The notes under the pieces: generated by a model
What the model was told of the DNA's origin: nothing
Seen by the model: the letters and a program-made list of their open reading frames with translations, nothing else
Databases searched by the model: none
NCBI RefSeq assembly: GCF_001625305.1
Contig: NW_017804120.1
Span: forward strand, 291,553 to 355,552
DNA length: 64,000 bases
Source of the DNA: Branchiostoma belcheri
Taxonomy: Eukaryota
Direction: 5' to 3'
Part shown: positions 7,435 to 46,804 of the stretch, in pieces
Layout: the number at the start of each line of letters is the position of its first letter
Position numbering within the stretch: the first letter of the stretch is position 1
Position numbers and translations under genes: made by a program

Positions 7435-8227
7435 GGCCACACCAAGTAATTTTTAATGGATGACGTCCGCACGCACATTGAAATTGGCACGCAGACCAAG
7501 AACCAAGAAATTCAACTTGTAACTAGTGCTGCATACCAGTTCACTGGACTTGGATCCGGACTTGTAAGAATGTTTAGGTTCAAGTCCAAAAGAACCTAAA
7601 AGTCAAGAACCGAGTCCGGACTTATTACCATAAAAGACCATTTCACAGACCCCTTTTCTTTCCAAACCACCTAAAACCTTCCATAGATTGCAAAATCTTT
7701 GCTGCAAAATTAAGAAAAATTGCCATCGGGCATCGTCAAGTACCGGCCTCCATGTTATATGGCCAAAGTTTCACCCAGACAACATTGCAAGGTTGCCAAC
7801 ATGCAATTTTGTATATGCCATGGGTTTAGGTCCGGACTTATAAGTCCGGAAAATTTAATCCTCTGGACTTGAATCCGGACCTGAACCTGAATGTGGGTTT
7901 AGGTACTATGCAGCACTAGTTGTAACTATGACCAAAGAGTCACGACAGTGGGATAAGGGAAGATGTGATGAAAGGAAAGAAACAGGACAGGACGACAACT
8001 GCTGTTCCACTGATTTATTGCCGTTTCCATGACGAATAAAAGACTTGGTTGGTTTTTACGCTGTGTTCTCTCATTTAATGTGTCCTATTTATAACATTTG
8101 TCATCCCAAGTAAATTTCAAATTTAGACGTCTTGCTTTTTTTTGCATTTCTTGTTTTTTTTTTATCTGGCATTAGATTTATGGTTTCCAGAGGATGTCAT
8201 CCATAAAAATTACATCTTGGTGTGGCC
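7435..8227 (+). mobile_element. MITE family C copy carrying a nested family B hAT-MITE at 7524-7918.
   Basis: C termini and TTA flanks. Body is interrupted at 7523/7919 by the B element, which has an 8-bp target-site duplication. Confidence 0.75.
7524..7918 (-). mobile_element. hAT-like MITE family B, about 395 bp, termini TAGTGCTGCATACC...GGTATGCAGCACTA. Nested inside a family C MITE.
   Basis: 8-bp flanking direct repeat cTTGTAAC/gTTGTAAC (7 of 8 match). Termini begin with TAG, as in hAT elements. Confidence 0.75.
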
Positions 8228-8389
8228 TTATTGCGAATTTCTCGCCGAATTTGTATAATTTGCATTTTCCTACTTCTTGAGTAACTTGGACGTCAACATA
8301 CCTAGACAACCTTTAAATTCTAAGACAACAAATTTGTTACCTTTACTACAACTGGCCACCTAGTGGTGTCTCTTCTCTCTGTGTGTGGT

Positions 8390-8655
8390 GTCAGGTGGCA
8401 TAGTGGTAGATCATTCGACTATGAAGTGGGGAGACCCGGGTTCGATCCCGAGTCGTACCCGGGACATGTCTGGACATGGGCCTCAACGTTGTACCCTTGG
8501 GAAAAGCACTTTACACGACTTTCCTCACTCCACCCAGGTGTGAATGGGTACCTAACTTTGGTTGGGGAAGGTCGTATTAAGGTCGCCTTGTGGTGCCGAA
8601 TGGCAGCCGCACAGACCCTTGCGACAGTTCCACAAAAATGTGTGGAGCAAATATG
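8390..8655 (+). mobile_element. tRNA-derived SINE. A tRNA-like head with A and B boxes is followed by the conserved core cccttgggaaaagcactttacacgactttcctcac.
   Basis: Sequence ggtggcatagtggtag...ggttcgatccc. The core is shared with the SINEs at 3290, 46805 and 51938. It abuts the family F element. Confidence 0.6.
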
Positions 8656-8700
8656 TGTTATTACCTTCGCCAAGAAGGTTATGTTTTCGTAGGCGTTCGT

Positions 8701-8739
<39 letters not shown>

Positions 8740-9579
8740 AGCACGATAACTCAAGAAGGCTAAGATGGATTGTCTTGATATTTGGTAGGTGGATAGGTCT
8801 TTATGAGACGTGGAACTGATTAAATTTTGGGCCCCCTAGCGGCTTGTTATGGTACTGCAGCTGAACTTCCGGTTTTGATATCTCGTGATCTAGACATGCT
8901 AGGGTGACGAAATTTGGATGGTAGGTAGCTCTTGTGCTGGGGAAGAAGTGATGTGAGTTTGGCCTCCCTAGCAGCTTGCTCTGGAACTGCAGGGGCGTTA
9001 GTTGAAAAATATTTAAAGGCGGATAACTCTAGAACCGATTGATGGATCGTCGTGATTTTTGGCATGTAGGTAGCTGAAGTGATGCTTAACATAATGATAT
9101 TATAATTATGCATATATTATTGTAATTTGCATAATTAATGAGGAAATTCTATAAATCAGCTGCATTCCATGATAGGACTATTCAAGCTTGTGACATATGT
9201 AATTAAGAACGGCAGAAATACAGGCAGATATCGATTATGCAAATGAAGACTTAATTTGCATAATTAATGAGAAAATGTTATATTTACATAGTGGTAACTG
9301 CCTGGAATTTCATACTTGGGATATTTGAAAGTTATGTGAAGGTGAACATAATTAAACATAACTTATTCAAATAAGGACCTCATTTGCATAATTTATGAGG
9401 AAATGCTATAATGGCATCCTTTGATAAGATAAGACTGTCTTCTGGTGTAGAATATGATCAACAGATATAATTGATGCAAATATAGGATCCTATTTGCACA
9501 ATCAGGGGGATTAATCTATAATTTCTTACTCATAAAGGCTAACATCATTTGGCGAAGGTATGAGATCGTGGAACTCTAG
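8656..9579 (+). mobile_element. Family F non-autonomous element, about 920 bp. It has an internal (TG)n tract and about 125-bp AT-rich subrepeats. Its ends are CCTTCGCCAAGAAGG...CATTTGGCGAAGGTATGAGATCG.
   Basis: Four copies in the window share both ends. Short inverted termini (CCTTCGCCAA/TTGGCGAAGG). Its ORFs (8847..9113 and so on) are repeat artefacts. Confidence 0.65.
8701..8738. repeat. (TG)n microsatellite inside the family F element.
   Basis: About 17 units. Confidence 0.95.
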
Positions 9580-9734
9580 TCATTGTGTATAATTTGATTG
9601 TTGTGATTTGTATTGATTATTATGTGATACCCTGCATCAATTCAGTCCTTAAAAGGCTGCGACCGCACGGGTACTGTTCGGCTAATAAAAAAAAACACTT
9701 GTTTCGTTAGTCTAATAAACTTTCACTGTTGCAG

Positions 9735-9872
9735 GTAAAAGTGGGGTTCCTTGGCCTGAGTGACGGGAAGCGTGATCCTGAGATAGTCCGTGTGCAGCTG
9801 ACAGACGACAGTCTGGTACTACAGAGAGAGGAGACAGTCTACGGGAACTCACTGGCCGCTATAAGCTCACAG
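9735..9872 (+). CDS. Internal coding exon, 138 nt, phase 0 to 0, encoding VKVGFLGLSDGKRDPEIVRVQLTDDSLVLQREETVYGNSLAAISSQ. First exon of the plus-strand PDZ gene visible in this window.
   Basis: Pyrimidine tract plus AG acceptor (ttcactgttgcag|gt) and a GT donor (cacag|gtgtgt). Only one open frame. Joins in frame to the exon at 10918. Confidence 0.45.
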
Positions 9873-10917
9873 GTGTGTGTTATACGCTAACAACCACCTG
9901 TTCAGGTCTTTATATTTGTAGATTAAATTGCCTTTTTTTAGTTATTATTGGGTGCTTTTGGGTATACAGAAGCTGGGCTTGAAATTCACTTTTCGGGAAT
10001 AGGTGCACTGGTGTACCAAGCCTAAAAAATTACCCTATTCTTGTGTGTTCTTACATACCACAGTCCTATCCACTTCATCACTTAGTGATGACTACCCAAC
10101 TGTGGTAATCATTTGTCCTCTAGCAGGGAGCAGGGCTTGAAAACTAAACAATACTTCTACAGGGCTCGAAATACTGGGTGCATGTGCACCTTAGTGCACC
10201 CAAAAATTTTATAATTTGTAGGTTTATGTACGAAAAGATATCAAATGTATACTAGTATACTGTATATTCTTGACATCTAACTGTCAGAAAAATCTTTCTT
10301 ATTTACATAGTACATACAGTACACAATCCCCCAATTGCTGAGGTCTGCATATAAAGATATGCAACATGCTACGAGGATTTATAAAGTGTTCATCCATTCA
10401 TGAGTTAAGCTTGCAGATATCTGGTAGCACGGCCTGTTTTTCCGGTGCTGCGTTTGTGAAGCCAGCAGATTTGAATCTGTTTGTGCTGCTAGCTTCATCA
10501 ACAAGTCAAAACGATAAGGTTTTGGCAGCTGCAATTGTTTGATAAGCTTGATGAACGACACCGTAAAAATCCTTTGTCAGCTTAAGAGCGTACATGTAGT
10601 TTGATGCTCAGATACAGCCTTAATAGAGCCATGCGTCAGTTTAACTGTCAAAATGTCTTTTCTTGTACATGTCAAACATATTCTAAAAGCTTTTTTTCTG
10701 TTACAGGTCAACAACTTTGATATTGACAGCAACAGAGTAAGTGGCTTTTCTAAAAGTTTTACTTTAATAAGTAAAATTTCCTTTGAATTAGATTGCTTTG
10801 AGGTTGTTTTTTGCATTTAATTTTTTAACCACAAATTCTGTACCTTTGGAAAATGTATTATATTAAAAATTATCATTCATAACAGAACTAAATGTTGACT
10901 GTCTTTTTTTTCTTCAG

Positions 10918-10974
10918 GAAAGATCAGTTATTCTGAGAAGACAAAAATCTGGAGGTCTGGGGTTGAGTATCATG
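10918..10974 (+). CDS. Coding exon encoding the start of a PDZ domain (ERSVILRRQKSGGLGLSIM).
   Basis: Acceptor ttttcttcag|g and donor atcatg|gtaggt; 57 nt in phase 0. The R-x-V-x-L-x-K-x-GLG-S-I motif is the PDZ beta-A/beta-B signature. Confidence 0.55.
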
Positions 10975-11619
10975 GTAGGTTCACCATTTCCACCCCTGAG
11001 TCCTCTTTTATTCATATAATACCTTCTCCAAGAAGGTTAATACGATTTTGGTTGAAGTTCTAGCTTGCCTGAAATTTGTGTTGTGTCATCTCAATTCTGT
11101 TTCAGGTAATATTATGTTAGGGGGAGAATGTTTAGCCTATAAAATGCTTTTTCCTGCATTTTGAGGGGCAAATTTTGCTGCTAGACTAAATGAATTTATT
11201 TTAATGATCTCTTTCCATATCTTTATATGCCAATTTTGGTCTGTCAAAGATGACGGATTGTCCAAAATTTTTTCCAGCGGCAAAATTCCATCAAAATTAA
11301 TGATACAAAGACGGACGGTGGTTAGAACCCAGGTTTTGGTATTACTAAGCAGTTTGTGGTTGAACACCATAACTCAAGAATATGGATATAGATTGTCGGA
11401 TTTTTCAAATCAGAAAAAGTAGTGGAATAAGAGCCGAAAACCAAGAAAATAATTTGGTTTGGCCTGCCGCCATACGTGCTCAGTTTCTCCGCTGATGTGG
11501 AAATGATCCGGTCGTTTTCGTGCCCGCCGTCCGAAGCGTTGCTCTATCACTCTGTTAATCCCCGTGGAATGGACACTACCAGCCCAAACAGGTTTATTAT
11601 GGACTCAGGGTCCACGTTA

Positions 11620-12220
11620 TTTGGCGCACATGTCAGTACAATGCCGCAGGGGGAAGGGGGTGGCTTGGGTGAAGAATTTCAAGACTCGAAAGACTTTGTA
11701 CAGATTTGGTTTCCAGGTTGTGGACAGAAAATTAAAGTGACAGTGACAGTAAGAGAAGACATACTTCAGCATTCAAGATTTGGATTTGAATTTATATCGT
11801 AATTTGATGGACATGTCCGTACAATGCCGCAGGGGGAAGGGGGTGGCTTGGGTGAGGAATTTCAAGACTTGAAAGACTTTGCACAGATTTGGTTTCCAGG
11901 TTGTGGACAGAAAATTAACGTGACAGTTGTAGAAGACATACATTTTGTACTTAAGGATTCAAGATTTGGATTTGAATTAGGTGGTTATTTGGTGGACATG
12001 TCAGTACAATGAAATAGGGGGAAGGGGTGTCTTGCTTAAAGAATTTCAAGCCTCAAATTAAAGTTTCTAAGATTTTAGATTTTCACATTATTAGAATTAG
12101 ACTTTGATTTTTATCAATAATGAATTTTTAGTCCTCCTGATTTGGTGCACATGTCAATGCAATGTTAAGGGGAAGGGGTCTGAGGCTTGAATGAAGAATT
12201 TCAAGCCTCAAATGTATAGA
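11620..12220. repeat. Tandem repeat, about 3.2 units of roughly 185 bp.
   Basis: Repeated gtcagtacaatgccgcagggggaagggggtggcttgggtgaagaatttcaagac... ORFs 11476..11802 and 11824..12012 are artefacts. Confidence 0.75.
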
Positions 12221-12691
12221 TTTTCTTGTTAAAGAAATTGCAATGTTTTCTTAGCTCTTATGAGAAAGAGTTACTATTATATGATTCAGGAATTGAACAC
12301 ACTACTCCACTACTGGTGGACTAGCCCTATCTGGCACTGTGTGGCCCAAGAGGTACAGAAACAAAGATGGGCACTGCCCCTATTTACCAAAAGTTGTGAG
12401 AAGAATTGCAACATATAATGTATGATTGTAAGTCATGCATGTGTTATGTTACAACCATAATAATTACAGTACTATGAGTATTGATATGAATTCATCTTCT
12501 TCCTCCAAAATGCACATTAGCACACTCAAGGTCAATAAGCACAACCTTGTTATCATGAAGGTCATGATTGACGATGTTCAAGTACACCTGTAGATGATGG
12601 ATATTGGGGGGTGAATTTTACTGTTAGCAATAAAAGTATTTAAGCAGATCAATTCTTGAAACCCTATTACGTTTTATTGTACATCGTAAAG

Positions 12692-13125
12692 TAGGGCTGC
12701 GTACCTAAACGCAACATCAGGTACAGGTACAGGTACCGGTACAGAGGTTTAGGTACAGGTCCGGACCTGTACCTGTACCTGAACAATTTGACAAATTAAC
12801 ACGTGTTCTTCACTTTTTCAATCATGACACAAACAATAATAAAGTGTTGACAACTTGTCAGTATCTTCCAATCACAACCCTGGATCAGCCACACTCTCGC
12901 GATGTCTCGTGAGACTGAGGATCTCAAATCAATCGACGGTGTTTACGTCTTTTCCAGTGCTAATTTTTCGTCTTTGTGGTAGGATTTACCTATCTTTAGT
13001 CATATACATGGTGTAAACTAGCTATTTCGGTATATACTCGTTACTTCATGATCCGGTATTTTGGACCTGTACCGAAACGATTTTTACGGTATTGGACCGG
13101 TACAGTGTACCGGTCCGCAGCCCTA
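12692..13125 (+). mobile_element. hAT-like MITE family D, about 435 bp, termini TAGGGCTGCGTACCTAAAC...GCAGCCCTA. It is related to family B.
   Basis: Perfect 8-bp target-site duplication TCGTAAAG. The second copy lies 1.45 kb away in inverted orientation. Confidence 0.8.
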
Positions 13126-13407
13126 TCGTAAAGCCATATTACTGGCTGGTTCCTCAATGGTTTACAAGCAGAATTCTGCCCAATTTCGATTCTTCTATGT
13201 CTTCTCTTAAAGGCATTCAATGCAACTTTAGGGAAGCAAAACAAATATTTTGGATGAGGAAATCTGTATGATATTGACATTACAGAGAAGCAAGTGATGT
13301 GAGGCATCTTTTTTATTTTTTGGGTACCACTCATACATGTAATTAGCTAGAACCAGCCTAGTAATAGTAGTATGATACAAAACAACCAACCGTTTTCTGT
13401 CAGTAAC

Positions 13408-13791
13408 TAGTGATGCATTACCTAAACCCAATTTTAGGTTCAGGTCCGGATTCAAGTCCAGAGGTGGACTTGTAAGTCCAGACCTAAACCCATGGCATAT
13501 ACAAAATTGCATGTTGGCAACCTTGGAATGTTGTCTGGGTGAAACTTTGGCCACATAACATGGAGGCCGGTACTTGACGTCGATGCCCGATGGCAATGTT
13601 TTCTTCATTTTGCAGCAAATATGTTGCAATCTACGGAAGGTTTTAGGTGGTTTGGAAAGAAAAGGGGTGTGTGAAATGGTCTTTTATGGTTGGTATAAGT
13701 CCGGACTCGGTTCTTTTAGGTTTTTTTGGACTTGAACCGAAACATTCTTACAAGTCCGGATCCAAGTCCAGTGAACCGATATGCAGCACTA
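13408..13791 (+). mobile_element. hAT-like MITE family B copy.
   Basis: Flanks TCAGTAAC/TCAGTGAC (7 of 8 match) around the B termini. Confidence 0.7.
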
Positions 13792-14577
13792 TCAGTGACA
13801 TCACATTTTTGCCTCACAGATATCAGTATGCTATGGGATAGGATTGCTACATCAAAAGAATGACCAGAAAATTGATGTTGAAAATCCAGTTTTGCCGCCC
13901 TGAAATTGCAATTTGGATGCCTTTAAGATTAAGAAACTGCCTTAGACATTCAGTCTAGACTTTCTTAGAAATTTGACTGGGAAGGGCTATATCTAGATGT
14001 CTTATCACATTTACATGATTGTACCTCTAGACTTCTTTTGAATGGAATATCCATTTGACAAATAGCTGCACACCTTCAAAACATTTTAGCTATGAAATTA
14101 AAAGCCTCATTCTATAGCTAGCTCATATGAAAGTGCAATTAATATCAAAGTGTCGTGCATTCTTTGATTCAACACTGTAAATCTATTCAAGGAAATCCCA
14201 TGAGAAGTAAAATCAAGTACATTGAAATGGGGAGAGAAATCTTCAAGATTATTCAAATATGCACCAACAACCACCTTGTCAATGTCATTTTTCTTAATTC
14301 ATGTAATATATGTAATTTTATGTCATTATAAACCATCATGGTAACAGCCTTCTATTCGCCATATATTACTAACTGTTATTGAGCACTACACATGCCAAAT
14401 AGTCATAAATCCACAGCCAATTTGGCTGCCATCATCACATACTTTTATTTGACTGTCACAGCAAATAAAACTCAAATTACATGGTGTAAAAGTTATGATT
14501 TTCTACACGTACATGTTCTTATAAGCCCCTTTTATTAGAGATTATGTAGTGCGTCATACTTGTACATGTATCTGAAC

Positions 14578-15013
14578 TAGGGCTGCGGACCGGTACACTG
14601 TACCGGTCCAATACCGTAAAAATCGTTTCGGTACAGGTCCAAAATACCGGATCATGAAGTAACGAGTATATACCGAAATAGCTAGTTTACACCATGTATA
14701 TGACTAAAGATAGGTAAATCCTACCACAAAGACGAAAAAATAGCACTGGAAAAGACGTAAACACCGTCGATTGATTTGAGATCCTCAGTCTCACGAGACA
14801 TCGCGAGAGTGTGGCTGATCCAGGGTTGTGATTGGAAGATACTGACAAGTTGTCAACACTTTTTTATTGTTTCTGTGTCATGATTGAAAAAGTGAAGAAC
14901 ACGTGTTAATTTGTCAAATTGTTCAGGTACAGGTACAGGTCCGGACCTGTACCTAAACCTCTGTACCGGTACCTGTACCTGTACCTGATGTTACGTTTAG
15001 GTACGCAGCCCTA
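14578..15013 (-). mobile_element. hAT-like MITE family D copy 2, inverted relative to 12692-13125.
   Basis: Perfect 8-bp target-site duplication ATCTGAAC. Confidence 0.8.
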
Positions 15014-15339
15014 ATCTGAACCAAAGCATAGAAAGATGTGCCAAGCAATTCCCACTTGGCCTTCCTACACTAATACTATCTCAAAGCTGTAGGTATTGTC
15101 ATGTCGTAACTTCATGATACAAAGTAAACGTGACATTACAAAATGTTACAATTTCATACACGTATGCATTCTTTGATTCCTTTCGTTTCATACATGTAGG
15201 TATTTCGCAGTGCGTCATTTTTTATTTTAGCCAAAGGGTGGAACGATGATTGTGCCAAGCGATTCCCAGTTGGCTTCCCTAGACTGGTCTATCTCAAAGC
15301 TTTGCTGTCACCATGCCATAGCTTTATTTGATACCAAAC

Positions 15340-16272
15340 TAGAGTTCCCCGATCTCATACCTTCGCCAAATGATGTTAATCTTTATGACGTACGCGACTG
15401 ACAAAGTTTAGATTAGATTATCCCCCCCTGATTTAAGAAATAGGAACCTAATTTTCATGAATTATATTGTTTTATCATAATCTCAACCAAAAGACAAAAA
15501 GTCTTATATTAACAAAGAATGCATTCTAGCATTTCCTAATAAATTATGCAAATGAGGTCCTGATTTCAATAAATTATGTTTAATGATGTTCACCTCAATT
15601 TAACTTTCAAATACCACAAGTATGAAATTCCAGGCAGTTATCATTACATAATTATAAAATTTTCTCATTAATTATGCAAATTAAGTTCTTTTTAACATGA
15701 TCAATATCTTCCTGTGTTTCTCTCGTTGTCAATTACCAATGTCACAAGCTTCAATTGTCCTATCATGGAATGCAGCTGATTTATAGAATTTCCCCATAAA
15801 TTATGCAAATTACATCCATATTTGCATAATTGTCACATAATTATATTAAGCATCACGTAAGCTACCTACATACCAAAAATCACGACGATCCGTCAACCGG
15901 TTCTTGAGTTATCCCCTTTTGAATATTTTCAAGAATTTATCCCTGCAGTTCCAGAGCAAGCCTCTAGGGGGCCTAAACTCACGCCACTTCTTTCCCAGCA
16001 CAAGAGCTACCTACCATCTAAATTTCAATACCATAGCATGTCTAGATCATGAGATATCAAAACCGGAAGTTCAGCTGCAGTACCATAATAAGCCGCTAGG
16101 GGGCCCAAAATCTAATCATTTTGAGGTCTCGTCAAGACCTACCCACCTACCAAGTATCAAGACAATCCATCAAGGCCTTCTCAAGTTATCGTGTTTACAG
16201 ACAGACACACACACACACAAACACACACATACACGAACGCCCCTGAAAACATAACCTTCTTGGCGAAGGTAA
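15340..16272 (-). mobile_element. Family F element, inverted copy. Together with 8656-9579 it forms a roughly 7.6-kb inverted pair.
   Basis: Reverse complement of the 8656-9579 copy along its full length, including the (CA)n tract at 16201-16234. Confidence 0.65.
16201..16234. repeat. (CA)n-rich microsatellite inside the inverted family F element.
   Basis: Read directly. Confidence 0.9.
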
Positions 16273-16451
16273 TAAAAATGAAATTACCGACTGACTGAAT
16301 TTACAATAATAAAAAAATTGTATTGCCTACATTCACTCAAATTCTTAAATCACTCGTGCATCATTTTTGTATCTTTAGCCAAACTATAGAATGATTTTGT
16401 GTCTTAGACCATGTTGATTTAATTATATTTATTATTAGATATAACATGTAG

Positions 16452-16691
16452 GAACCCCAAAACTGATGCGAGCTTGCGAATTAAAAAAATTATTGGCAAA
16501 AAAATTGCCTTCATAGAGTATAGTGTGGCGAATAATAGCCTCCTCGTTTTTATTTCTTTATATTTTCTTCTGTACCTTTGGAGTTGCTTAAATGTACAAT
16601 TTACAGTATGGTCGAAAACTTTTTTTGGAAACAGACATCTGAAAATTCATGCGGGCTGAGATGTCGTCCATATAATGAAATCAACATGGCC
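16452..16691 (+). mobile_element. 3' partial copy of family E MITE.
   Basis: Right TIR and about 200 bp homologous to 56900-57122. Confidence 0.5.
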
Positions 16692-16699
16692 TTACCCAA

Positions 16700-17140
16700 A
16701 ATATAGCATGAAGATTCAGACAATTCCCGGTGGCCAGTCCTACACTAACTCTATCTCCGGGCCACGCTGTCATCATGATCAGTCACTTAGTCATCAGCTA
16801 TTGCCACAAGAAAGTGCCGTGCCAAGCCGACAAGATGATACCTACTGTAACTGACAGGGGACAACAAATTTTTGTGTTTACTAAAGGAAAACATATTGTT
16901 TTTTGCTCTGTTTCATCTCCATTCCAAACACTGACCTCTGATCTGGTCAATGACCTGAACCAGACAGTCTCTCACCATGGTAACTGGTGTTGGGTAACAT
17001 AATGTTGCAATTTTATAGTAAGAGGGATTTATACTCCTGTCACCATATATGTGAATGTGTTTAAGTAAGAATTAACAGATCAGACCATATGTGGAGGTAA
17101 ACATTATGCATTTGTAAATGTTAACTTTCTTGTTTTACAT
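16700..17140 (+). repeat. Interspersed repeat family G, about 300-450 bp. Further copies at 17200-17350, 31075-31375, 33360-33680 and 33700-33990.
   Basis: Shared blocks cagacaattcccagtggccagtcctacactaac and gttgcaattttatag...gaattaacagagcagaccatatg. ORF 16730..17002 is an artefact. Confidence 0.55.
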
Positions 17141-17661: not shown

Positions 17662-18016
17662 TAGTGCTGCATACCTAAACCCAATTTTAGGTTCAGGTCC
17701 GGATTCGGGCCAGAGGTTTAGGTTCAGTTCCGGACTTGTAAGTCTGGACCTAAACCCATGGCATATACAAAATTGCATGTTGGCAACCTTGCAATGTTTT
17801 CTGGGTGAAACTTTGGCCACATAACAATTGGAGGCCGGTACTTGACGATGCCCGATGGCAATGTTTTAGGTGGTTTGGAAAGAAAAGGGGTATGTGAAAT
17901 GGTCTTTTATGGTAATAAGTCCGGACTCGGATCTTGACTTTTAGGTTTTTTTGGACTTGAACCTAAACATTCTTACAAGTCCGGATCCAAGTCCAGTGAA
18001 CCGGTATGCATCACTA
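17662..18016 (+). mobile_element. hAT-like MITE family B copy.
   Basis: Perfect 8-bp target-site duplication CTAAAAAC. Confidence 0.75.
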
Positions 18017-18294
18017 CTAAAAACTATAATTTTATACAATATATGATATACAATAAATAAATTGTACTCAAACTATAAGCCTATTACAATCACATGGGGC
18101 TAATCATGGGTTTAAAAATGATTTTAGAGTAATGATAGATTAATTACTAAATAATGACTGAGTGTATGTACATAAAAAAAATTACAAGGACTTGAAAAAG
18201 ACAAACAATGAAGAGCAATTAAAAATGACATATACATGTAGCAATTTGAATGTAACGTCACTTCTCTAGTCTGAATAGTATATTATACATGTAA

Positions 18295-19910: not shown

Positions 19911-19979
19911 TAGCACTCTATCAAGCGTTTCATATCGATTGCCGCCTGGTATGATATATAATCCGTTATGATAAGCCGC

Positions 19980-22318: not shown

Positions 22319-22715
22319 TAGTGCTGCATACCTAAACCCAATTTTAGGTTCAGGTCCGGATTCAAGTCCAGAGGTTTAGGTTCAGTTCCGGACTTGTAAG
22401 TCCAGACCTAAACCCATGGCATATACAAAATTGCATGTTGGCAACCTTGCAATGTTGTCTGGGTAAAACTTTGGCCACATAACATAGAGGCTGGTACTTG
22501 ACGATGCCCGATGGCAATGTTCTTCATTTTGCACCAAAGATTTTGCAATGTACGGAAGGTTTTAGGTGGTTTGGAAAGAAAAGGGGTATGTGAAATTGTC
22601 TTTTATGGTAATAAGTCCAGACTCGGTTCTTGACTTTTAGGTTTTTTTGGACTTGAACCTAAACATTCATACAAGGCCGGATCCAAGTCCAGTGAACCTG
22701 CCAAATGCAGCACTA
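22319..22715 (+). mobile_element. hAT-like MITE family B copy.
   Basis: Perfect 8-bp target-site duplication CCTGGTAC. Confidence 0.8.
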
Positions 22716-23290: not shown

Positions 23291-23654
23291 GGCGACACCA
23301 ATTTAATTTCTTGGTTAACAGATTCGCCCGCTTCATTTTTTTCTGATTTGCAAAAAACAAAAATCAGAATCAACTGCAAAATGCTGATATTTTGCCCAGA
23401 ACAGTTAAAAACAGTCCTTTTCTTTCTAGTTGTTACAGTTATTCTATCTTTCAATGCAGTGGTATAATTAAAAGTTCAAAATTCATTGTTTAAATTTTGA
23501 ACCAGCCTGGTGTGTTGACTTCAAGGCTCCTATCGTACCATTTTGGACTATAATAGGATGCCTAGGCCTGTTTTTATTTTTATTTTTTTTTGCCCGCCTG
23601 CTTCATTATTTTTCTAGAAAAATCCGTTAAGCAAGAAATTAACTTCGTGTGGCC
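23291..23654 (+). mobile_element. MITE family A, copy 2.
   Basis: Same TIRs and internal sequence as 126-474. TAG flanks. Confidence 0.8.
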
Positions 23655-23850
23655 TAGGTACTCAATACCTAATTTAGAGGCATAAAAACTACTTTGCCTG
23701 TGCAAGAACTAATCGATAAGTCACTGTGCGGAATATAATTACCATCGCACATTAGAATGCCAAGCAAAGTTCACAGAATAGACTATGTATTAGTATGGAG
23801 AGCGGCTGGAAAGTCAAGGAGGCCATAAGCTAAGAAAGTTCATGCATAAA

Positions 23851-24246
23851 TAGTGCTGCATACCTAAACCCAATTTTAGGTTCAGGTCCGGATTCAAGTC
23901 CAGAGGTTTATATTCAGTTCCGGACTTGTAAGTCCAGACCTAAACCCATGCCATATACATAATTGCATGTTGGCAACCTTGCAATGTTGTCTGGGTGAAA
24001 CTTTGGCCGCATAACATGGAGGCCGGTACTTGACGATGCCCGATGGCAATGTTTTCTTCATTTTGCAGCAAAGATTTTGCAATGTACGGAAGGTTTTAGG
24101 TGGTTTGGAAAGAAACGGGGTATGTGAAATGGTCTTTTATGGTAATAAGTTCGGACTCGGTTCTTGACTTTTATGTTTTTTTGGACTTGAACCTAAACAT
24201 TCTTACAAGTCCGGATCCAAGTCCAGTGAACCGGTACGCAGCACTA
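23851..24246 (+). mobile_element. hAT-like MITE family B copy.
   Basis: Perfect 8-bp target-site duplication TGCATAAA. Confidence 0.8.
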
Positions 24247-24643
24247 TGCATAAAGTATTGTGTTTTACAATAGTTGCTGGAACATTGTTATAATAAGACA
24301 TGCATACCCAATTTTACCTTTCTAGTTATATATTTTTTATAGATGTATGTAAAGAAACCAGAACGAAAATATTCAAGAATGTAAAGAACCAGACATTCAG
24401 CACCAAGGACAGAACCTGTATATATTCAGCATTGTATTTTGTGACAAAATTTAACCATATCTCTTTTTAAATGAGGATTTTCTTTATAAAACCATATCTC
24501 TTTTTTGATAAAGAGATACTCTTATCTCTTTTTGATTATCTTAATGACATCAAGATAGCTTTTGTGCCTTCCAATCATTGTAAACTTTTGAAGACAACTA
24601 TAAAATAAAACCACATGATTGTTGACTCTACTCTTGAAGAGCA

Positions 24644-24896
24644 CGTCGGCAGAACGTACTGCACCTGCGTGAAACCCGTAATGTATTGTGTATAGCACTT
24701 CGGCAGAACGTCTCATATAAGGTCGTATTCGCGCATATAAGGTTAACACTCCGTCTGTAGTTATCAAATGTTATGTCGGAAAAGATATCCTCTGCAACAG
24801 GCAAAATTCTGATGCAATGTTGACCAAAAATCTTTCGAAAACCGCAAAAATCCAGGGTTCTGCGCAGGCGCAGTACGTTCTGCCGACATGCTCTCT
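24644..24896. mobile_element. Palindromic MITE family J, about 250 bp, with TIR GAGCACGTCGGCAGAACGTACTGCACCTGCG. A fragment also occurs at 21080-21240.
   Basis: About 30-bp TIRs. The internal sequence is inversely homologous to 21080-21240. Confidence 0.55.
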
Positions 24897-25149
24897 TGAA
24901 GTGAAGTTGGTTGCTCTAAGAGTAATTGCCATCTCATGAAATTGTGGTTGTGTCCTAGAACTAGATTTCCTAGACGTATAAATATCCAATTTGGATTTCC
25001 AGACAATTTCCTACATGTTAAGTTGTTGGTATTTGTCATGTATACAGATTATTTGGTTCAAATGTTATGTACATTGTGTAGTTGAAGTTAAGATGAAATA
25101 TTCTTCCCGTACATTTTGATGTAGCGCTATATGGTAGTGCTCATCCAAT

Positions 25150-25400
25150 TCTATAGCCCTTGAGCCACACAGTTCTAGCTTTAGGATTGTGTGTTCAACT
25201 ACCATTTTGCTGTACAGGGCAGTGCCTCTCCATTTCCATAGCCCTCGGGCCACACAGTTGTAGCAGTGGGGGTGTGCGTTTAACTACCATTTTTTGTATA
25301 CATGTAGGGCAGTGCCTATCCATTGCTATAGCCCCTGGGCCACACATTTGTAGCAGTGTGTGTGTTCAACTACCTTATAGTACCATTTTTCACATACTTG
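25150..25400. repeat. Three tandem copies of about 85 bp. They lie next to a minus-strand tRNA-like fragment at 25435-25520.
   Basis: Repeated ctatagcccttgagccacacagttctagc...caactaccattttg. The adjacent reverse complement contains a B-box-like ggtttgaatcccggc. Confidence 0.55.
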
Positions 25401-25726
25401 TACTGTAAGTGCTGAATGCTAAGCAGAGAAATGTGTATCATGTACATGAATATGTATTCGGCCGGGATTCAAACCCACAACCTTCAGAATACAAAGCAAG
25501 CACTCTATCAAACTTGAGGCACAGGTATTATACCTTAATGGTCCATATGACAATGTTCTAAAAAAGCTCTAAGACTTATCTTTTCTACCCAGGGCGGTGC
25601 TGAACACAACATCCCAGTCCTGATATCAAGTATAGTCAAGGACCAAGCTGGTGAGGACATTATTCTGTACACTCTCAGTGTCACCACAGGGCTCGAAATA
25701 CTTTTTTTTCTGCATACCTTCACTGG

Positions 25727-26121
25727 TAGTGCTGCATACCTAAACCCAATTTTAGGTTCAGGTCCGGATTCAAGTCCAGAGGTTTAGGTTCAGTTCAGGA
25801 CTTGTAAGTCCGGACCTAAACCCATGGCATATACAATATTGCATGTTGGCAAACCTGCAATGTTGTCTGGGTGAAACTTGGCCACATAACATGGAGGCCG
25901 GTACTTGGCGATGCCTGATGGCAATGTTTTCTTCATTTTGCAGCAAAGATTTTGCAATGTACGGAAGGTTTTAGGTGGTTTGGAAAGAAAAGGGATATGT
26001 GAAATGGTCTTTTATGGTAATAAGTCCGGACTCGGTTCTTCACTTTTAGTTTTTTTTTTACTTGAACCTAAACATTCTTATAAGTCCAGATCCAAGTCCA
26101 GTGAACCGGTATGCAGCACTA
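25727..26121 (+). mobile_element. hAT-like MITE family B copy.
   Basis: Perfect 8-bp target-site duplication TTCACTGG. Confidence 0.8.
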
Positions 26122-26329
26122 TTCACTGGTGCAGGTAATATTGGGAAATACCGCTTTGCTTTGAATGTAGGTTTTTTAAAAAAGCAAGTATGCATGAAAC
26201 TGCATAGAAAGAATTTTATTTATTATTTCACTCATTCTGGTAATAATAAAATGTCATTGAGTGAAGTAGATATAACTTGAATCATCAGTGCAACAAAAAT
26301 TTACAAGTATGGATCGGATTCAATGTACA

Positions 26330-26860
26330 TGTAGGTTAGGTGCAGGTTAGACATCAGAAATACCTGCACAGCTCCAATTTTACCTGCATATACCCAGTAC
26401 ATGGCCCAGTGCAGGTTAGGTGCAGGTAGACATCAGAAATACCTGCACAGCTCCAATTTTACCTGCACTAACCTGCATATACCCAGTACATGGACCAGTG
26501 CAGATTAGGTGCAGGTAGACACATCAGAAATACCTGCACAGCTCCAATTTTACCTGCACTAACCTGCATATATACCCAGTACATGGACCAGTGCAGGTTA
26601 GGTGCAGGTAGACATCAGAAATACCTGCACAGCTCCAATTTTACCTGCACTAACCTGCATATACCCAGTACATGGACCAGTGCACATTAGGTGCACGGTA
26701 GACATCAGAATACCTGCACAGATCCAATTTTACCTGCACCTACCTGCATATACCCAGTACATGGACCAGTGCAGGTTAGGTGCAGGTAGACATCAGAAAT
26801 ACCTGCACAGATCCAATTTTACCTGCACCTTACCTGCATATACAGGTGGTATTTCCAGCC
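26330..26860. repeat. Tandem array, about 6 units of roughly 88 bp.
   Basis: Unit gttaggtgcaggtagacatcagaaatacctgcacagctccaattttacctgcactaacctgcatatacccagtacatggaccagtgcag. Overlapping ORFs are artefacts. Confidence 0.8.
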
Positions 26861-27156
26861 CTGCACCATATAAAAGCAACACGCAATAAATTGCCAGGCT
26901 GTATTTCCGTAGGCGATAGCTGCATGAACATTAATTTTCCCTTGCATGAAAAGACCATAACCACATCAGATGCCATTTTCAATAACAAATAACACTTTGT
27001 ATGAATACCTGCAAATGACTAGCCTGGTTACCAAAGCTATTTTAGCTGACTTTCTTCCTCTTTGCAAATAGCTATTTGTGGAGTTTCTTTGACATTCGTC
27101 CTCTATTTGATTGAAAATATTCTGCACCTTAAAATAGTTTTGGTAACCAGGCATAA

Positions 27157-27528
27157 GGCCACAGCAATTTAATTTCTTGGTTAACGGATTTGCCCGCTTC
27201 ATTTTTGTCTGATTTGCAAAAAAAAAAAAAAATTCAGAATCAACTGCATAATGCTCATATTTTGCCCTGAACAGTTGAAAACAGTCCTTTTCTTCCTAGT
27301 TGTTACAGTTATTCCATCTTTCAATGCAGTGGTATCATTAAAAGTTCAAAATTCATTGTTTAAATTTTGAACCAGCCCGGTGTGTTGACTTCATGGCTCC
27401 TATCATACCATTTTGGGCCATAATAGGATTCCTAGGCCTGTTTTGTTCGGCCACCCGCTGCACTATTTTCTATTTGTCTAGAAAAATCTGTTAACCAAGA
27501 AATTAAATTGGTGTGGCCTAAGGCTAGC
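27157..27528 (+). mobile_element. MITE family A, copy 3.
   Basis: Same TIRs and TAA flanks. Lies about 200 bp upstream of PDZ exon 27730. Confidence 0.8.
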
Positions 27529-27729
27529 AAATGACATGTTTTGATACAGTTACTATCATAAGTTTATGATACATTCTAATGTGCATATATCATAGTAGTT
27601 AATAGCAGACACACTTATAAATTCTATACCAGCATGTGCTAATGATTTTTAAAAAGTGCAATTTAATATAGACTCTAGAAAATTATTTGAAGAGAATGAC
27701 AATTTTTCCCCCCTGTTTTTCTAATGTAG

Positions 27730-27773
27730 CTGACCAGACTGGCCAACTTTTCGTTGGTGACGCAATAATCAAG
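27730..27773 (+). CDS. Coding exon for the PDZ middle segment ((A)DQTGQLFVGDAIIK).
   Basis: Acceptor ctaatgtag|c and donor atcaag|gtatgc; 44 nt. Enters with a 1-nt carry and leaves in phase 0. GDxIxxVNG is the PDZ consensus when joined to the next exon. Confidence 0.6.
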
Positions 27774-27995
27774 GTATGCTTGTTACTCATGATGTTTTGC
27801 CCCTGGGTGCTTTATTATTAAATCCTAATCAAACTTAAATCTCTAATTAGAGCAAGTTATCACAAAAGTTTCCAATTAAAAAATGATAATACTGCAGGCA
27901 ATGCATCCTCATGTCTTTTTTATTAGCTACAGTAAAGTGAAATCCCCCCCCCCCAAATCCTTTATGGTTTGTCCCTATGTTCCTGGAATTGGTAA

Positions 27996-28407
27996 GGCCA
28001 CACCAAGTAATTTTTATAGATGATGTCCACGCGCGCATTGATTTTGGCCTGCATGTTTCCAGAAAAAAAGAAGATGAAATTCTGCTCCCTGTAACTATGA
28101 CCAAATAGTCACGACAGTGTCATCGGTAATGAGAAATATGAGCACAAGAAACAGGACAGGACGACAACTGCTGTTCCACTGATTTATTGCTGTTTTCATG
28201 ATTAATAAAAGACTTGTTGATTGTTACTCTGTGCTCTCTCATTCAATTTGTGTCCTAACATTTGTCGTCACTTAGAATTTAAAAATATTTCAAATCTAGA
28301 CATCTTGTTTTGGTTGGCCCTTCTCTGTTTTTTGTTTTTTTTCGCACTCTCGCATTAGATTTAGGGTCTCCATAGAATGTCATACATAAATATTACTTGG
28401 TGTTGCC
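27996..28407 (+). mobile_element. MITE family C copy.
   Basis: TIRs and internal homology to 3901-4381. Confidence 0.75.
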
Positions 28408-28674
28408 TTAAAATCCTACCAGTGTCAGGATAAGCGTCATAAATTTTGAAGATGGAGATTTGTAGGAATACAGCCTAGGATAGACGGTAATCTCTGTTAT
28501 TTCCCTAGCGCGTTGTGATTCCTGAATATATGCGTCGACTCCATCCCGGAAAGCACATCAAAAACTGATCCAGGTGCACTTTACTGAGACACGGTGCTTC
28601 GTCAATTCAGCTGCTGTATTCCTTATGAGTGATAGGGCGCCTGTGTGCATCTTTAACGCTGTTATGTTGAATTT

Positions 28675-29317
28675 CTTAAGGTGTCCTCCCTGGCTAATTT
28701 GGCATTTTAGGTTTCCATCGTTTTCTCACACAGAAATTTAGAAAGAACTGTAGTTGTACTGAATATTGATACCTGGGTACAAAAGGGTTATGAATATGAT
28801 TTTATGGACCATATGGATGACGTCATCACATTTTATTGCCCTAAATGTAATTATCTTTAAAGTTATAATATAGCACTAAGTAACTAAAATAAAAGTATGA
28901 TTTTTATGTGCATAATGGTCAAAGCTACACGTACAAACGTACGTTTGCACAAATTGATATCTACTAATAATCCGTAGTTATTAGAGAATAACCTAATTAC
29001 CTAATTAAAATTTAGTTATTCTCTAATAACTATGGGTAATTAGTAGATATCAATTTGTGCAAACGTACGTTTGTAGCTTTGACCATAATGCACATGAAAA
29101 TCATACTTTTATTTCAGTTACTTGTACCAAAGTGCTATATTATAAATTTAAAGATAATTACATTTGGGGCAATAAAATGTGATGACGTCATCCATATGGT
29201 CCAAAAAATCATATTCATAACCCTTTTGTACCCAGGTATCAATATTCAGTACAACTACAGTTCTTTCTAAACGATGGAAACCTAAAATGCCAAATTAGCC
29301 AGGGAGGACACCTTAAG
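28675..29317. mobile_element. Foldback element, about 640 bp. It is a near-perfect hairpin with roughly 310-bp arms and a centre at about 28995. It contains ATGGATGACGTCATC, which includes a TGACGTCA palindrome.
   Basis: The left arm is the reverse complement of the right arm almost base for base (cttaaggtgtcctccctggc ... gccagggaggacaccttaag). Confidence 0.75.
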
Positions 29318-29412
29318 ATTGTAGAGCGTCAGAGATGTCAGGATGAGAAGACTGATAGGTGATATGTATGTAAATGTGATTAAAGTTTAGTTGGCTTTAT
29401 CTCTTTCTTTAG

Positions 29413-29454
29413 GTTAATGGTGTCAACGTAGAGCATTCGACGCATGATGATGTG
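29413..29454 (+). CDS. Coding exon for the PDZ segment VNGVNVEHSTHDDV.
   Basis: Acceptor ctttctttag|g and donor gatgtg|gtgagt; 42 nt, phase 0 to 0. Classic PDZ VNG..v...H..aV motif. Confidence 0.65.
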
Positions 29455-29917
29455 GTGAGTTTGGTTCACTTTGGTTTCACTTATTCTCAATACAGTTTGT
29501 ATGTGTAATATTACAACGATACAAAAAGTCAATTTTCTGGTTATTTCTTTACAAATAAACTCTCCATTGCGAATAAGTGTCATTCAGGAAGTGGAGGTGT
29601 TAAAATATGACACCTCATAACATAAGTGTGTTTAAAAGCTGGAAACACAGCTGTCAGCCAAGTTTGTTTACATTCTAGTATTTTGTGGTGGTATCACAAA
29701 CTAAGTGCACACTAAGGAACTAAGCAACTAAGGAAAAAGGTTGATTTTTCAAAGGATCCAAAAGTCAGATACATGTGCAATTTGTAATTTGATAAAGCAA
29801 TCAGTGGTCGTCTGACCTCACATAAAAATCTGTTGTTGATGATTTTTTTATTCATTTATTAATAATGACAATTTTCATGATTTAGCCAAAGTTTGATTTT
29901 TTTTGGTTAAAACTCAG

Positions 29918-30002
29918 GTACAACATCTGAAGAACTCCCCTGATGATGTAAAGTTAACTGTTAGATACTACAGAGCAGCAACCCCCTACCTAAGAGCTCC
30001 AG
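29918..30002 (+). CDS. Coding exon for the PDZ C-terminal segment VQHLKNSPDDVKLTVRYYRAATPYLRAP(G).
   Basis: Acceptor aaactcag|g and a strong donor ccag|gtaagt; 85 nt, leaves with a 1-nt carry. The VKLTV beta-strand ends the PDZ fold. Confidence 0.65.
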
Positions 30003-30032
30003 GTAAGTCAAGTCTTTCTGTTGAGGTGCTAA

Positions 30033-30406
30033 GGCCACACCAATTTAATTTCTTGGTTAACGGATTCGCCCTCTTAATTTTTTTCTCATTTGCAAATAAA
30101 AATAAAAATTCAGACTGAATCAACTGCAAAATGCTCATATTTTGCCCTGAACAGTTGAAAACAGTCCTTTTCATCCTAGTTGTTACAGTTATTGCATCTT
30201 TCAATGCAATGGTATCATTTAAAGTTCAAAATTCATTGTTTAAATTTTGACCCAGCCTGGTGTGTTGACTTCATGGCTCCTATTGTACCATTTTGGGCCA
30301 TAATAGAATGCCTAGGCCTGTTTTTATTTATTTATTCTTTTTGCCCACCCGCTCCATTACTTTTCTAGAAAAATCCGTTAACCAAGAAATTAAATTGGTG
30401 TGGTCT
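30033..30406 (+). mobile_element. MITE family A, copy 4. Inserted 31 bp downstream of the 5' splice site of PDZ exon 29918-30002.
   Basis: Same TIRs and TAA flanks. The ORF-track ORF 29903..30118 runs from the exon into the MITE. Confidence 0.8.
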
Positions 30407-30771
30407 AAATAACATTGCAAGAAATTTGCAAGGAAAACCAATCAATACCAGACTAAGTATGCTTATATATCCATCTGCTACTTCCATATTATAATCAGTT
30501 TTTCAACATTGATATTGAAAATATAATTGTCCTCATGCAAGTTTTGCTCTGTTAAACTGTATTGGTTGGATTACTAGAGACAGGCAAAGTCTGATAAAAA
30601 AAGAAAAAAGATAATCCTACCTCCCAACCCTAATTTTTTTCAGAACTGAAACAGGAAATATAACATTTTTTGCCTAGGCCTTTCCTTAAATGTGGTGAAA
30701 TTAATGACTAAAAAGTCATTAACAGTTTGGAGCGCTAGACTAACTGCAGGACTTGTTTCCCGTCGCTGCAG

Positions 30772-30857
30772 CCAAGTGGTCGCGGTACTCGTCTGAACAG
30801 TGTAACGGGAACGCTTCTCCTGCCGATAACGAAACAACCAGCAGCTCGGAATGGAAG
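30772..30857 (+). CDS. Candidate coding exon, 86 nt, encoding (A)KWSRYSSEQCNGNASPADNETTSSSEWK.
   Basis: Acceptor cgctgcag|cc and donor ggaag|gtgtgc. It restores phase from the previous exon (1-nt carry) to phase 0, is open only in this frame, and is locally GC-rich. Weak, because I cannot rule out other exons in the roughly 10-kb gap that follows. Confidence 0.3.
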
Positions 30858-32188
30858 GTGTGCATCATCACTAGTTAACTAACCAGTCTGTTAACTCATT
30901 AACTTATAGATGATACATTTAACTTGATGTTTACAAGCCATTATAAAAATTTGCCTTTTTTGTGTGTGTTTTTTGCAATCCTTGTTAAACTTAGTTTTTA
31001 ATTATACCATATATTTTGGTGTTGTTAGCGAGCTATACATGTACATGCAGTAATTTTATGATGGATCACAATAATCATAATTATGTTTACCAAAGGAAAA
31101 CATAATATTGTTTTTGCTACGTTTCCTCTTCTTCCATTTCAAACACTGACCTCTGACCTAGCCAATGACCTGATTTGTTGACGTCTCTCAGCATGGTAAC
31201 TGCGGTGTTGGGTTAAATAATGTTGCAATTTTATAGCAGGAGGGATTTAGACTCCTGTTGGACCATACATTATATGAATGTGTTTGAATAAGAATTAACA
31301 GAGCAGACCATATGCAAAGGTTAACATTATGCAGTAGCTTTGCAAATGTTACATTTCTAGTTTTCGTTGCTTTTTCAAGGTGCATTTTTGATTTTTGATC
31401 ACTCCAGAGTGAGCCTTTATGTCCCATTCCCCCATTCCCCAATGTACGTTAAAGCTCAGTTGGTTCTTTGCCAGAAAGTCCATTTTCTTCATTAATCCCT
31501 CTCTGAGAATTTGTAGCCAAACTGCTACTTCACTGGGAAACATTAGATATATAACCAGTCCAAAATTAGTCTGGCATCTTGGGTAACGATGCATCACGGC
31601 TTACAGTCACTTTTGGTTTGTGTCTCGTTTCATTAAGTGCTCTGAATCAGGTAGTAAGGCGGAAAGTTTCATCGTCCTTCAACTTGACACCTTGCTCTTT
31701 GCGTAGTGAAAGCAACGATGAAGCCAAAAAAAATGTTGTCTCCGGTTACCCGGTCGACCCTAGCAAAGACCCAAGCCTTTTTTTATCACCCACTGGTATA
31801 AAGCTATAAAATTTTTCATCTGACATTTCAAATCATCTAACACATTTTTAGAAGAAAGTTTCTTCATTCAATAACTTCAGCCGTAGGTGAGATATTTGTC
31901 CACAAGCAAAAAGGTGGACAGGTGCTTGAGACAGTCCCAATGCAGCAAAATTAAACTTTATTTTCTTGATCATTCAGGCCAAAATCTATTTAAAAAATTG
32001 TAAATTTAAAAAAAAAAAACAAGAATAAGAAAATCCCACCCTACCAACCCTGATTTTTTTCAGGACTGAAACTGGAAACACAACATTGCTTTTCCTGGGC
32101 CTAGAATAAGCTGATTCACTGTTGAAACTGTGCATGTGCAATGTGATATGTATTGTTGATAAAATGTCAAAGCTAAAAGCCCTGAGAC

Positions 32189-32573
32189 TAGTGATGCATA
32201 CCTAAACCCAATTTTAGTTTCAGGTCCGGATTCAAGTCCAGAGGTTTAGGTTCAGTTCCGGACTTGTAAGTCCGGGCCTAAACCCATGGCATATACAAAA
32301 TTGCATATTGGCAACCTTGCAATGTTGTCTGGGTGAAACTTTGGCCACATAACATGGAGGCCGGTACTTGGCAATGTTTTCTTCATTTTGCAGCAAAGAT
32401 TTTGCAATCTACAGAAGGTTTTAGGTGGTTTGGAAAGAAAAGGGGTATGTGTAATGGTCTTTTTATGGTAATAAGTCCGGACTCGGTTCTTGACTTTTAG
32501 GTTTTTTTTGGACTTGAACCTAAACATTCTTACAAGTCCGGATCCAAGTCCAGTGAACCGGTATGCAGCACTA
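32189..32573 (+). mobile_element. hAT-like MITE family B copy.
   Basis: Perfect 8-bp target-site duplication CCTGAGAC. Confidence 0.8.
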
Positions 32574-44877: not shown

Positions 44878-44888
44878 CTTGATTCCAG

Positions 44889-46795: not shown

Positions 46796-46804
46796 TGTCT
46801 GTGT

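Follow-up and report, generated by a model that had tools for sequence, protein, structure and literature searches.

Non-autonomous hAT elements and hAT MITEs, such as maize Ds, Drosophila Mar, Brassica BniHAT and the human MER1/MER5-type Charlie elements, have in common an 8-bp target-site duplication (TSD) and terminal inverted repeats (TIRs) of the YARNG pattern. They are also alike in having subterminal repeats, a length of a few hundred base pairs and no open reading frame, and they are presumed to be mobilised in trans. The hAT TIR is short (about 10-25 bp), its YARNG pattern having a conserved A as the second base and G as the fifth, and local re-insertion has classically been shown for Ac/Ds. 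Branchiostoma genomes are rich in both hAT elements and MITEs; the amphioxus MITEs LanceleTn-1 to -4 and ATE-1 are small, TIR-bounded and non-coding, and they abound in Branchiostoma non-coding DNA. Families of hAT MITEs of the kind considered here are described in two papers (PMC3517528, PMC7385995). The BED domains of Hermes bind subterminal AAG(T/C) repeats, and Hermes prefers nTnnnnAn targets and makes 8-bp TSDs (PMC10368747).

In Branchiostoma belcheri, we find a 25-kb region that carries seven copies of a hAT-type family, B, and two copies of a sister family, D. It lies within the window, the whole 64-kb stretch of DNA that was analysed. We consider it probable that family B is a non-autonomous hAT MITE with D as its sister, that the copies inserted independently over a short period, and that local hopping best explains their clustering. 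A BLAST search with one copy as the query returned exactly seven full-length family B copies in the window (355-397 bp), at the positions and within the 25 kb that an earlier note on this DNA had claimed. The insertions are listed here with their observed boundaries, termini and duplications, together with the family C element that hosts one of them and a relic related to family D.

7435..8227, + strand: family C host element, interrupted by family B copy 1; 33-bp TIR starting GGCCACACCAAGTAAT…; TTA at both flanks
7524..7918, - strand: family B copy 1, 395 bp; nested in the family C MITE; identified by BLAST, TSD and empty site
7516-7523 (CTTGTAAC) and 7919-7926 (GTTGTAAC): TSD of family B copy 1, 7/8
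12692..13125, + strand: family D copy 1 (D1), 434 bp; termini TAGGGCTGCGTACC…GGTCCGCAGCCCTA; TSD TCGTAAAG, 8/8
13408..13791, + strand: family B copy 2, 384 bp; between the two D copies; TSD TCAGTAAC / TCAGTGAC, 7/8
14578..15013, - strand: family D copy 2 (D2), 436 bp; TSD ATCTGAAC, 8/8
17662..18016, + strand: family B copy 3, 355 bp; 42-bp internal deletion; TSD CTAAAAAC, 8/8
22319..22715, + strand: family B copy 4, 397 bp; TSD CCTGGTAC, 8/8; 3' terminus changed to …CCTGCCAAATGCAGCACTA
23851..24246, + strand: family B copy 5, 396 bp; TSD TGCATAAA, 8/8
25727..26121, + strand: family B copy 6, 395 bp; TSD TTCACTGG, 8/8; the sole copy with both 14-bp TIRs perfect
32189..32573, + strand: family B copy 7, 385 bp; 13-bp deletion; TSD CCTGAGAC, 8/8
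34635..35106, + strand: D-like relic, degenerate and 5'-truncated; two blocks 75-78% identical to D1

The family B consensus has a perfect 14-bp TIR, TAGTGCTGCATACC, and this terminus has 14 matches in the window when up to two mismatches are allowed, compared to 0.29 expected. These matches agree with the earlier claim that all copies have their termini in common, but the claim needs qualifying, as six of the seven copies have one to three changes in a terminus. Identity to copy 6 is 84-94% when gaps are counted, and pairwise K2P distances, which take in substitutions only, are 3.3-7.3%.

All seven family B copies are flanked by 8-bp TSDs, five of them perfect and two matching at 7 of 8 positions, so that the count given in the earlier note held on comparison of the flanks. 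With family D included, the 8-bp TSD is found at 9/9 insertions (seven perfect, two at 7/8), and a chance 8/8 match between flanks has a probability of ~2e-5 per pair. The 8-bp TSD and the 20-bp flanks are distinct for every family B copy. Because the 8-bp flanks are all unlike, the copies represent independent insertions and not duplicated segments. An origin of the cluster in the segmental or tandem duplication of one copy-bearing tract would fit the common orientation of the copies (6/7 on the + strand) and the repeat-rich character of the region, given that 49% of it has another copy elsewhere in the window. However, the distinct TSDs refute this origin, and the 20-bp flanks are unrelated, the spacing between copies is irregular (5.9, 4.3, 4.7, 1.5, 1.9 and 6.5 kb), and one family B copy lies inside a family C element while the remaining copies do not. 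We therefore give duplication virtually no credence. Beyond 20 bp, self-BLAST of the flanks of family B copies likewise found no alignment between copies.

The family C host is a MITE unrelated to family B and is not a hAT element. When copy 1 and one TSD are removed in silico, the flanks become colinear across the junction with other family C copies, and these paralogous copies, which represent the empty site, carry the 8-mer once. This comparison confirms the nesting of 7524-7918 in a family C MITE that had been proposed from the letters alone. The host is only ~74% identical to its relatives, and the family B copies are younger than it.

That D is a sister family of B, another earlier proposal, is right. 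The family D TIR, TAGGGCTGCG(T/G)ACC, differs from that of B at 2 of 14 bases, leaving 12/14 alike, and the first 80 bp of the two families are 77-79% identical. D1 and D2 are 98.9% identical to each other and lie in inverted orientation, separated by 1.45 kb. A single 2.3-kb composite element covering 12692-15013 was considered and rejected: its outer flanks would be unlike (TCGTAAAG compared to ATCTGAAC), and each half has a matching TSD of its own.

The TIRs start with TAGTG in family B and TAGGG in family D, with A2 and G5 both present, and the terminus pattern of these elements can be written TAGKGCTGCRTACC. Their target sites lean toward nTnnnnAn, with T2 or A7 present in 12/18 positions compared to 31% expected (P = 0.0018), although this bias is carried more by A7 (8/9 sites) than by T2 (4/9) and comes from a small sample of nine sites. 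The Buster clade reportedly has the target consensus nnnTAnnn, a finding said to be that of Arensburger et al. in 2011. Only 1/9 of the TSDs has TA at positions 4-5, and a Buster-type preference is not seen.

The outer parts of the family B consensus are rich in repeated motifs. TCCGGA occurs five times (positions 37, 69, 83, 300 and 360) and AAGTCC seven times, none of them farther than 100 bp from an end or in the central 200 bp, compared to a chance expectation of about 0.1-0.2, and CCTAAAC is a further repeated motif concentrated in the terminal ~100 bp on both sides. Among the subterminal motifs, AAGTCCGGA is a candidate BED-domain binding sequence. None of the six frames of the consensus is free of stops, and an Rfam scan of the whole window gave no match in the MITEs. 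At 355-436 bp, the elements fall below the size of about 800 bp that bounds MITEs, and they have the expected TIR-bounded, non-coding structure. MITE families also tend to have high and fairly homogeneous copy numbers across a genome; the counts here are seven B and two D copies in the window. Every hAT feature that is readable from DNA alone is present. The earlier note had taken the 8-bp TSD and the TAG start as marks of hAT, and the hAT assignment is supported by the TSDs, A2/G5, the target bias and the subterminal motifs.

An 8-bp TSD does not by itself separate superfamilies, as P, Merlin, Zisupton and some Mutator elements make TSDs of this length too, and no transposase is tied to family B. 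The elements could be MITEs of another such superfamily (P, Merlin, Zisupton, Novosib or an 8-bp Mutator variant) instead of hAT. We consider this highly improbable, because the TAGTG and TAGGG starts fit the A2/G5 positions of hAT (compare maize Ac, TAGGGATGAAA), the 14-bp TIRs are short and accompanied by subterminal repeats, and target choice leans toward nTnnnnAn. Other superfamilies have starts of their own, namely CATGATG in P elements, GG… in Merlin and long G-rich TIRs in MULEs.

Within hAT, families B and D are like the Hermes/Ac clade in the nTnnnnAn target and the 8-bp TSD, and the AAGT in the B subterminal repeats corresponds to the Hermes BED core, AAG(T/C). Members of that clade differ in being autonomous elements of 3-4.5 kb with 11-17 bp TIRs of other sequence, whereas the elements here are non-coding derivatives of 355-436 bp. 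The nine target sites, on which an assignment to the Hermes/Ac clade entirely depends, suggest that family B and D belong there. Among the elements compared, there is no sequence similarity between B or D and described hAT MITEs, and the B and D TIR strings occur in no paper of the full-text literature searched. The likeness to LanceleTn and ATE-1 is one of general description. Families B and D are a real but ordinary type of repeat in a repeat-rich genome, and one that will not surprise transposon specialists. Their practical use is as cleanly bounded entries for amphioxus repeat libraries, as their consensus, TIR, TSD and target preference are now defined.

We propose a model in which B and D supply cis sites only, namely the 14-bp TIR and the subterminal motifs, and the protein would come from elsewhere. 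We infer, as the earlier note did, that its source is an autonomous element elsewhere that would encode a hAT transposase, a protein with a BED finger, an RNase-H-like DDE domain and a hATC dimerisation domain, whose BED finger would bind the B and D end sites. This transposase would pair both ends, excise the element and insert it at a target site whose two strands are cut 8 bp apart, and repair of these staggered ends would give the 8-bp duplication, as at all nine insertions. The seven family B copies inserted independently over a short period, and copies would have been gained through transposition during replication or through gap repair. The short-range re-insertion typical of hAT would account for the confinement of B and D to 25 kb. 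An intact partner transposase would give amphioxus, a key invertebrate chordate model, a native system for cut-and-paste transposition of the kind that Tol2 represents in fish.

Searches for such a transposase covered the window and several larger collections. In window ORFs of at least 88 aa outside the parp4-like exon (42.0-44.6 kb) and the tandem-repeat block (51.1-53.1 kb), Pfam detected no transposase domain, the only domain found being a Death domain. The translated MITE consensus gave no candidate in a 5.8-billion-protein collection, and the TIR or an invariant internal 23-mer had zero matches in viral contigs and zero in prokaryotic genomes. One metagenome match (L002) was dismissed as chance, being only 20 nt long and in a 52%-GC bacterial contig. 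For insertion polymorphism, another B. belcheri assembly locus of 41 kb (L001) was fetched via the parp4-like protein. Its collinearity with the window starts only at 40170, so the cluster region is without a counterpart there, as is the whole of 0-40 kb of the window. No B or D copies were found in these 41 kb, nor in a B. floridae x B. japonicum locus (L003), whose 25 kb are too short to speak to species distribution.

The confinement of all seven family B copies to 25 kb of the 64-kb window has P = 0.017, or P = 0.002 when the calculation also takes in about 31 kb of other, copy-free B. belcheri sequence, both values being post hoc. Both D copies, with their TIR related to that of B, also fall within the cluster. 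The GGCCACACCAA families, by comparison, range from 0.1 to 58.8 kb of the window, and the equally repeat-rich 36-40 kb and 56-64 kb contain no B or D copies. Since clustering is particular to B and D, in contrast to the window-wide spread of other MITE families, it points to hAT local transposition. Local hopping would make the cluster a small natural example of this behaviour in non-autonomous copies, specific to one pair of related families.

The same hAT MITEs could instead have arrived from dispersed sources and be clustered by chance, through a regional insertion preference, or through relaxed selection in an intergenic or intronic tract that tolerates TEs. The seven copies form a star-like tree that lacks the nested common mutations expected from serial in-place seeding, which counts against local hopping and in favour of dispersed sources, as do the overall richness of the region in repeats and the post hoc nature of the clustering P. 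However, other MITE families of similar size are even across the 64 kb, equally repeat-rich parts of the window are devoid of B and D, and the cluster also holds two D copies that are near neighbours and nearly identical. We regard dispersed sources as somewhat unlikely, though a serious alternative, and local hopping as the probable cause of the cluster.

Individual family B copies diverge from their consensus by 1.6-3.6%, and the informative sites of their tree are few and conflicting. Noncoding identity between two B. belcheri haplotypes here is 91-96%, and the divergence of family B is no more than that between the two haplotypes at the locus. The recent burst that had been proposed is upheld by this low divergence, by the star-like tree and by an age below that of the family C host, but "recent" can be taken in a relative sense only. 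Recent activity fares less well for B itself: with altered termini in six of the seven copies, family B is probably past moving. The D1/D2 pair, at 98.9% identity, is a better sign of recent activity. A bolder reading, which we put forward tentatively and consider doubtful, is that the B. belcheri germ line still has an active hAT transposase, by which B and D are moved mainly over distances of a few kb. D1/D2, inverted and 1.45 kb apart, would then be a fresh local hop, and clusters of this sort would be hotspots at which haplotype-specific structure continues to change. Inverted hAT ends that lie close together are the substrate for the rearrangements by alternative transposition known from maize Ac/Ds.

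Elsewhere in the window, a LINE reverse-transcriptase fragment lies at 40529-40858, and a search with it gave only three ENA contigs, all of <1 kb.

The terminus TAGTGCTGCATACC, with up to two mismatches allowed, occurs 14 times in the window against 0.29 expected from shuffles. A BLAST search of the window with 25727-26121 as query returns exactly seven full-length copies of this hAT-type MITE (family B), and besides these only the first 80 bp of its sister family, D.

Family B copies (BLAST)
B1: 7524-7918, minus strand
B2: 13408-13791, plus strand
B3: 17662-18016, plus strand
B4: 22319-22715, plus strand
B5: 23851-24246, plus strand
B6: 25727-26121, plus strand
B7: 32189-32573, plus strand

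Family D copies
D1: 12692-13125, plus strand, perfect 8-bp target-site duplication (TSD) TCGTAAAG
D2: 14578-15013, minus strand, perfect 8-bp TSD ATCTGAAC
Degenerate D-like relic: about 34635-35106

The seven copies in 25 kb are thus those reported in the earlier note, and its count of TSDs also proved exact: the 8-bp flanks are identical at all positions in five copies and at 7/8 in the other two (a chance 8/8 match has a probability of about 2e-5). All nine TSDs of families B and D differ in sequence and homology ends exactly at the termini, which indicates independent insertions and rules out duplicated segments as the source of the family B copies. The nesting of one copy in family C, an older, unrelated MITE, was likewise confirmed. 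When B1 and one 8-mer are removed in silico from the filled site, CTTGTAAC-[B1]-GTTGTAAC, the joined flanks become colinear with other family C elements (27988-28410, 50365-50734 and others), in which the target C(Y)TGTAAC is present once. This empty-site comparison is independent proof of the boundaries.

The family B consensus is 396 bp long with 43% G+C and a perfect 14-bp terminal inverted repeat (TIR); all six frames contain stop codons, the longest open stretch being about 80 codons. Both TIRs are intact only in B6; each of the six other copies has a terminus with one to three alterations. Beyond the TIR the ends are asymmetric and so define an orientation, which is the same in 6/7 copies. 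Three motifs, AAGTCC (seven occurrences), TCCGGA (five) and CCTAAAC (four), lie without exception in the outer 100 bp of either end, with none in the central 200 bp, against a chance expectation of about 0.1-0.2 occurrences per hexamer in the consensus. No Rfam family matches any copy.

All DNA-level features that define a hAT element are present. The TIRs are short, start with TAGTG or TAGGG and carry the conserved A2 and G5; the terminus of Ac, by comparison, is TAGGGATGAAA. P, Merlin, Zisupton and some MULEs also make 8-bp TSDs, but their terminal sequences are different. T2 or A7 occupies 12/18 TSD positions, where 31% would be expected (binomial P = 0.0018), and only one of nine target sites is of the Buster type, nnnTAnnn. 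Hermes, structurally the best-known hAT transposase, prefers nTnnnnAn and produces 8-bp TSDs, and the subterminal AAG(T/C) repeats to which its BED fingers bind cluster close to the tips (PMC10368747). The family B motif AAGTCC contains this core. The classification as a hAT MITE is therefore supported by every testable feature, the earlier assignment being upheld by TSD length, the A2/G5 TIR, subterminal repeats and target bias. Family B is well bounded and represents a new, or at any rate newly delineated, case of a very familiar type of element. It may be an already named repeat family; its TIR strings do not occur in the full-text papers searched.

Among window ORFs of at least 88 aa, excluding the parp4-like exon and a tandem-repeat block, Pfam detects only a Death domain and no transposase. 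A peptide translated from the MITE has no relatives among predicted proteins, and a 20-nt chance hit is the sole match from DNA scans of viral, metagenome and prokaryote collections. No autonomous partner came up in any of these searches. The Death-domain ORF (57184-57549, minus strand, E = 1e-8) is probably an exon of an amphioxus death-domain gene, of which amphioxus has many.

Divergence of the family B copies from their consensus is 1.6-3.6% (substitutions), and pairwise divergence between copies is 3.3-7.3% (K2P). Only a handful of sites, mutually conflicting, are common to two or more copies, so the tree is star-like, the shape that a brief phase of amplification from near-identical sources should leave. 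The decay of the TSDs, with 2 mismatches over 56 compared positions (3.6% pairwise), is consistent with this. In aligned noncoding DNA, identity between the window and another B. belcheri assembly locus (L001, GCA_025402995.1) is 91-96%, and the insertions are thus no older than the deep haplotype divergence in the species. The family B insertions are clearly younger than the family C host, whose identity to its relatives is only about 74%. Family D is younger than family B. The earlier description of the burst as recent therefore stands in relative terms, but family B shows no sign of activity today.

The seven B and two D copies all lie within 25 kb. The other 39 kb of the window contain none, nor do 41 kb of L001 (about 31 kb of it non-redundant) or 25 kb of a B. 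floridae x B. japonicum locus. For seven points, a post hoc test puts the probability that all lie in a span of this size at 0.017 when the window is taken by itself and at about 0.002 when the extra sequence is included. Control families with GGCCACACCAA termini are dispersed over 0.1-58.8 kb, so regional tolerance of transposable elements does not by itself account for the pattern. For hAT elements such as Ac/Ds, re-insertion over short distances is classic behaviour, and it is the most economical explanation for the cluster, particularly for the D1/D2 pair; the star-like tree speaks neither for nor against it. The only features of mild note are this local, family-specific cluster and the inverted pair of near-identical D elements.

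D1 and D2 both have the termini TAGGGCTGCG(T/G)ACC, are 98.9% identical and lie inverted 1.45 kb apart with B2 between them. Their outer flanks differ, which rules out movement of the 2.3-kb unit as a composite. Similarity to family B is confined to the first ~80 bp of D (77-79% identity), and the TIRs differ at 2/14 positions. The 5' ends of the pair (12692-15013) face outward; closely spaced hAT ends like these are known from maize to be subject to alternative transposition, with rearrangements as the result.

Family C has a 33-bp TIR (GGCCACACCAAGTAAWTTTTATGGATGACGTCC) and TTA/TAA flanks.

Family C elements
7435-8227, host of B1
near 2709
3901-4381
27996-28410
38446-38912
39910
50369-50733
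55322-55731
58377-58836

Active Zator-1 elements in B. belcheri have 33-bp TIRs and TAA/TTA TSDs (2026 paper, PMC12905397). Because this architecture, compared by TIR length and flanks rather than TIR sequence, is the same, family C may belong to the Zator type and not to the Harbinger/Tourist type. A second family (126, 27157, 30033, 36856, 56345) has its first 11 TIR bases in common with family C.

L001, located through its parp4-like protein, aligns collinearly with the window only over window positions 40170-50760 (91-98.6% identity). The first 40 kb of the window, which hold the MITE cluster, have no counterpart there (window 1-40170 compared with L001 1-19662), and the window lacks the exons that encode aa 1-338 and 382-476 of the parp4-like model. 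This could reflect a large haplotype or assembly difference, or a truncated paralogue in the window. A TIR-bounded element of about 430 bp at L001 26108-26541 (CATGCCCGTAGCCAGG…CCTGGCTACGGGCATG) is missing at window 44683, a case in which B. belcheri haplotypes are polymorphic for a MITE insertion. Another indel, of about 800 bp, distinguishes L001 22172-22967 from window 41558. The ORF at 40529-40858 (plus strand) is similar to the zinc-knuckle region at the C-terminus of a reverse transcriptase from a non-LTR retrotransposon. At its position L001 has 1.4 kb of different sequence including an exon, and the databases contain only three relatives of the ORF, all short ENA contigs with 59-71% identity.

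The window has about 38% G+C and is very repeat-rich, 39% of its bases having another copy within the same 64 kb. Its sole long ORF (42077-44515, plus strand) is 99-100% identical to the NCBI Branchiostoma belcheri protein model "parp4" (P0001) outside repeat blocks, which identifies the window as nuclear DNA of amphioxus. An Rfam tRNA match at 51938-52010 (plus strand, 37.7 bits), where ARAGORN makes no call, may be a tRNA-derived repeat or pseudogene. Rfam also gives three plus-strand mir-2060 precursor matches, which score 73-79 bits where the gathering score is 54.5.

mir-2060 matches (Rfam)
51203-51290, plus strand
52509-52598, plus strand
52743-52834, plus strand

Two of the three fall within a tandem array of 39-bp period (52459-52954), which can be read as a long ORF of repetitive sequence as well.
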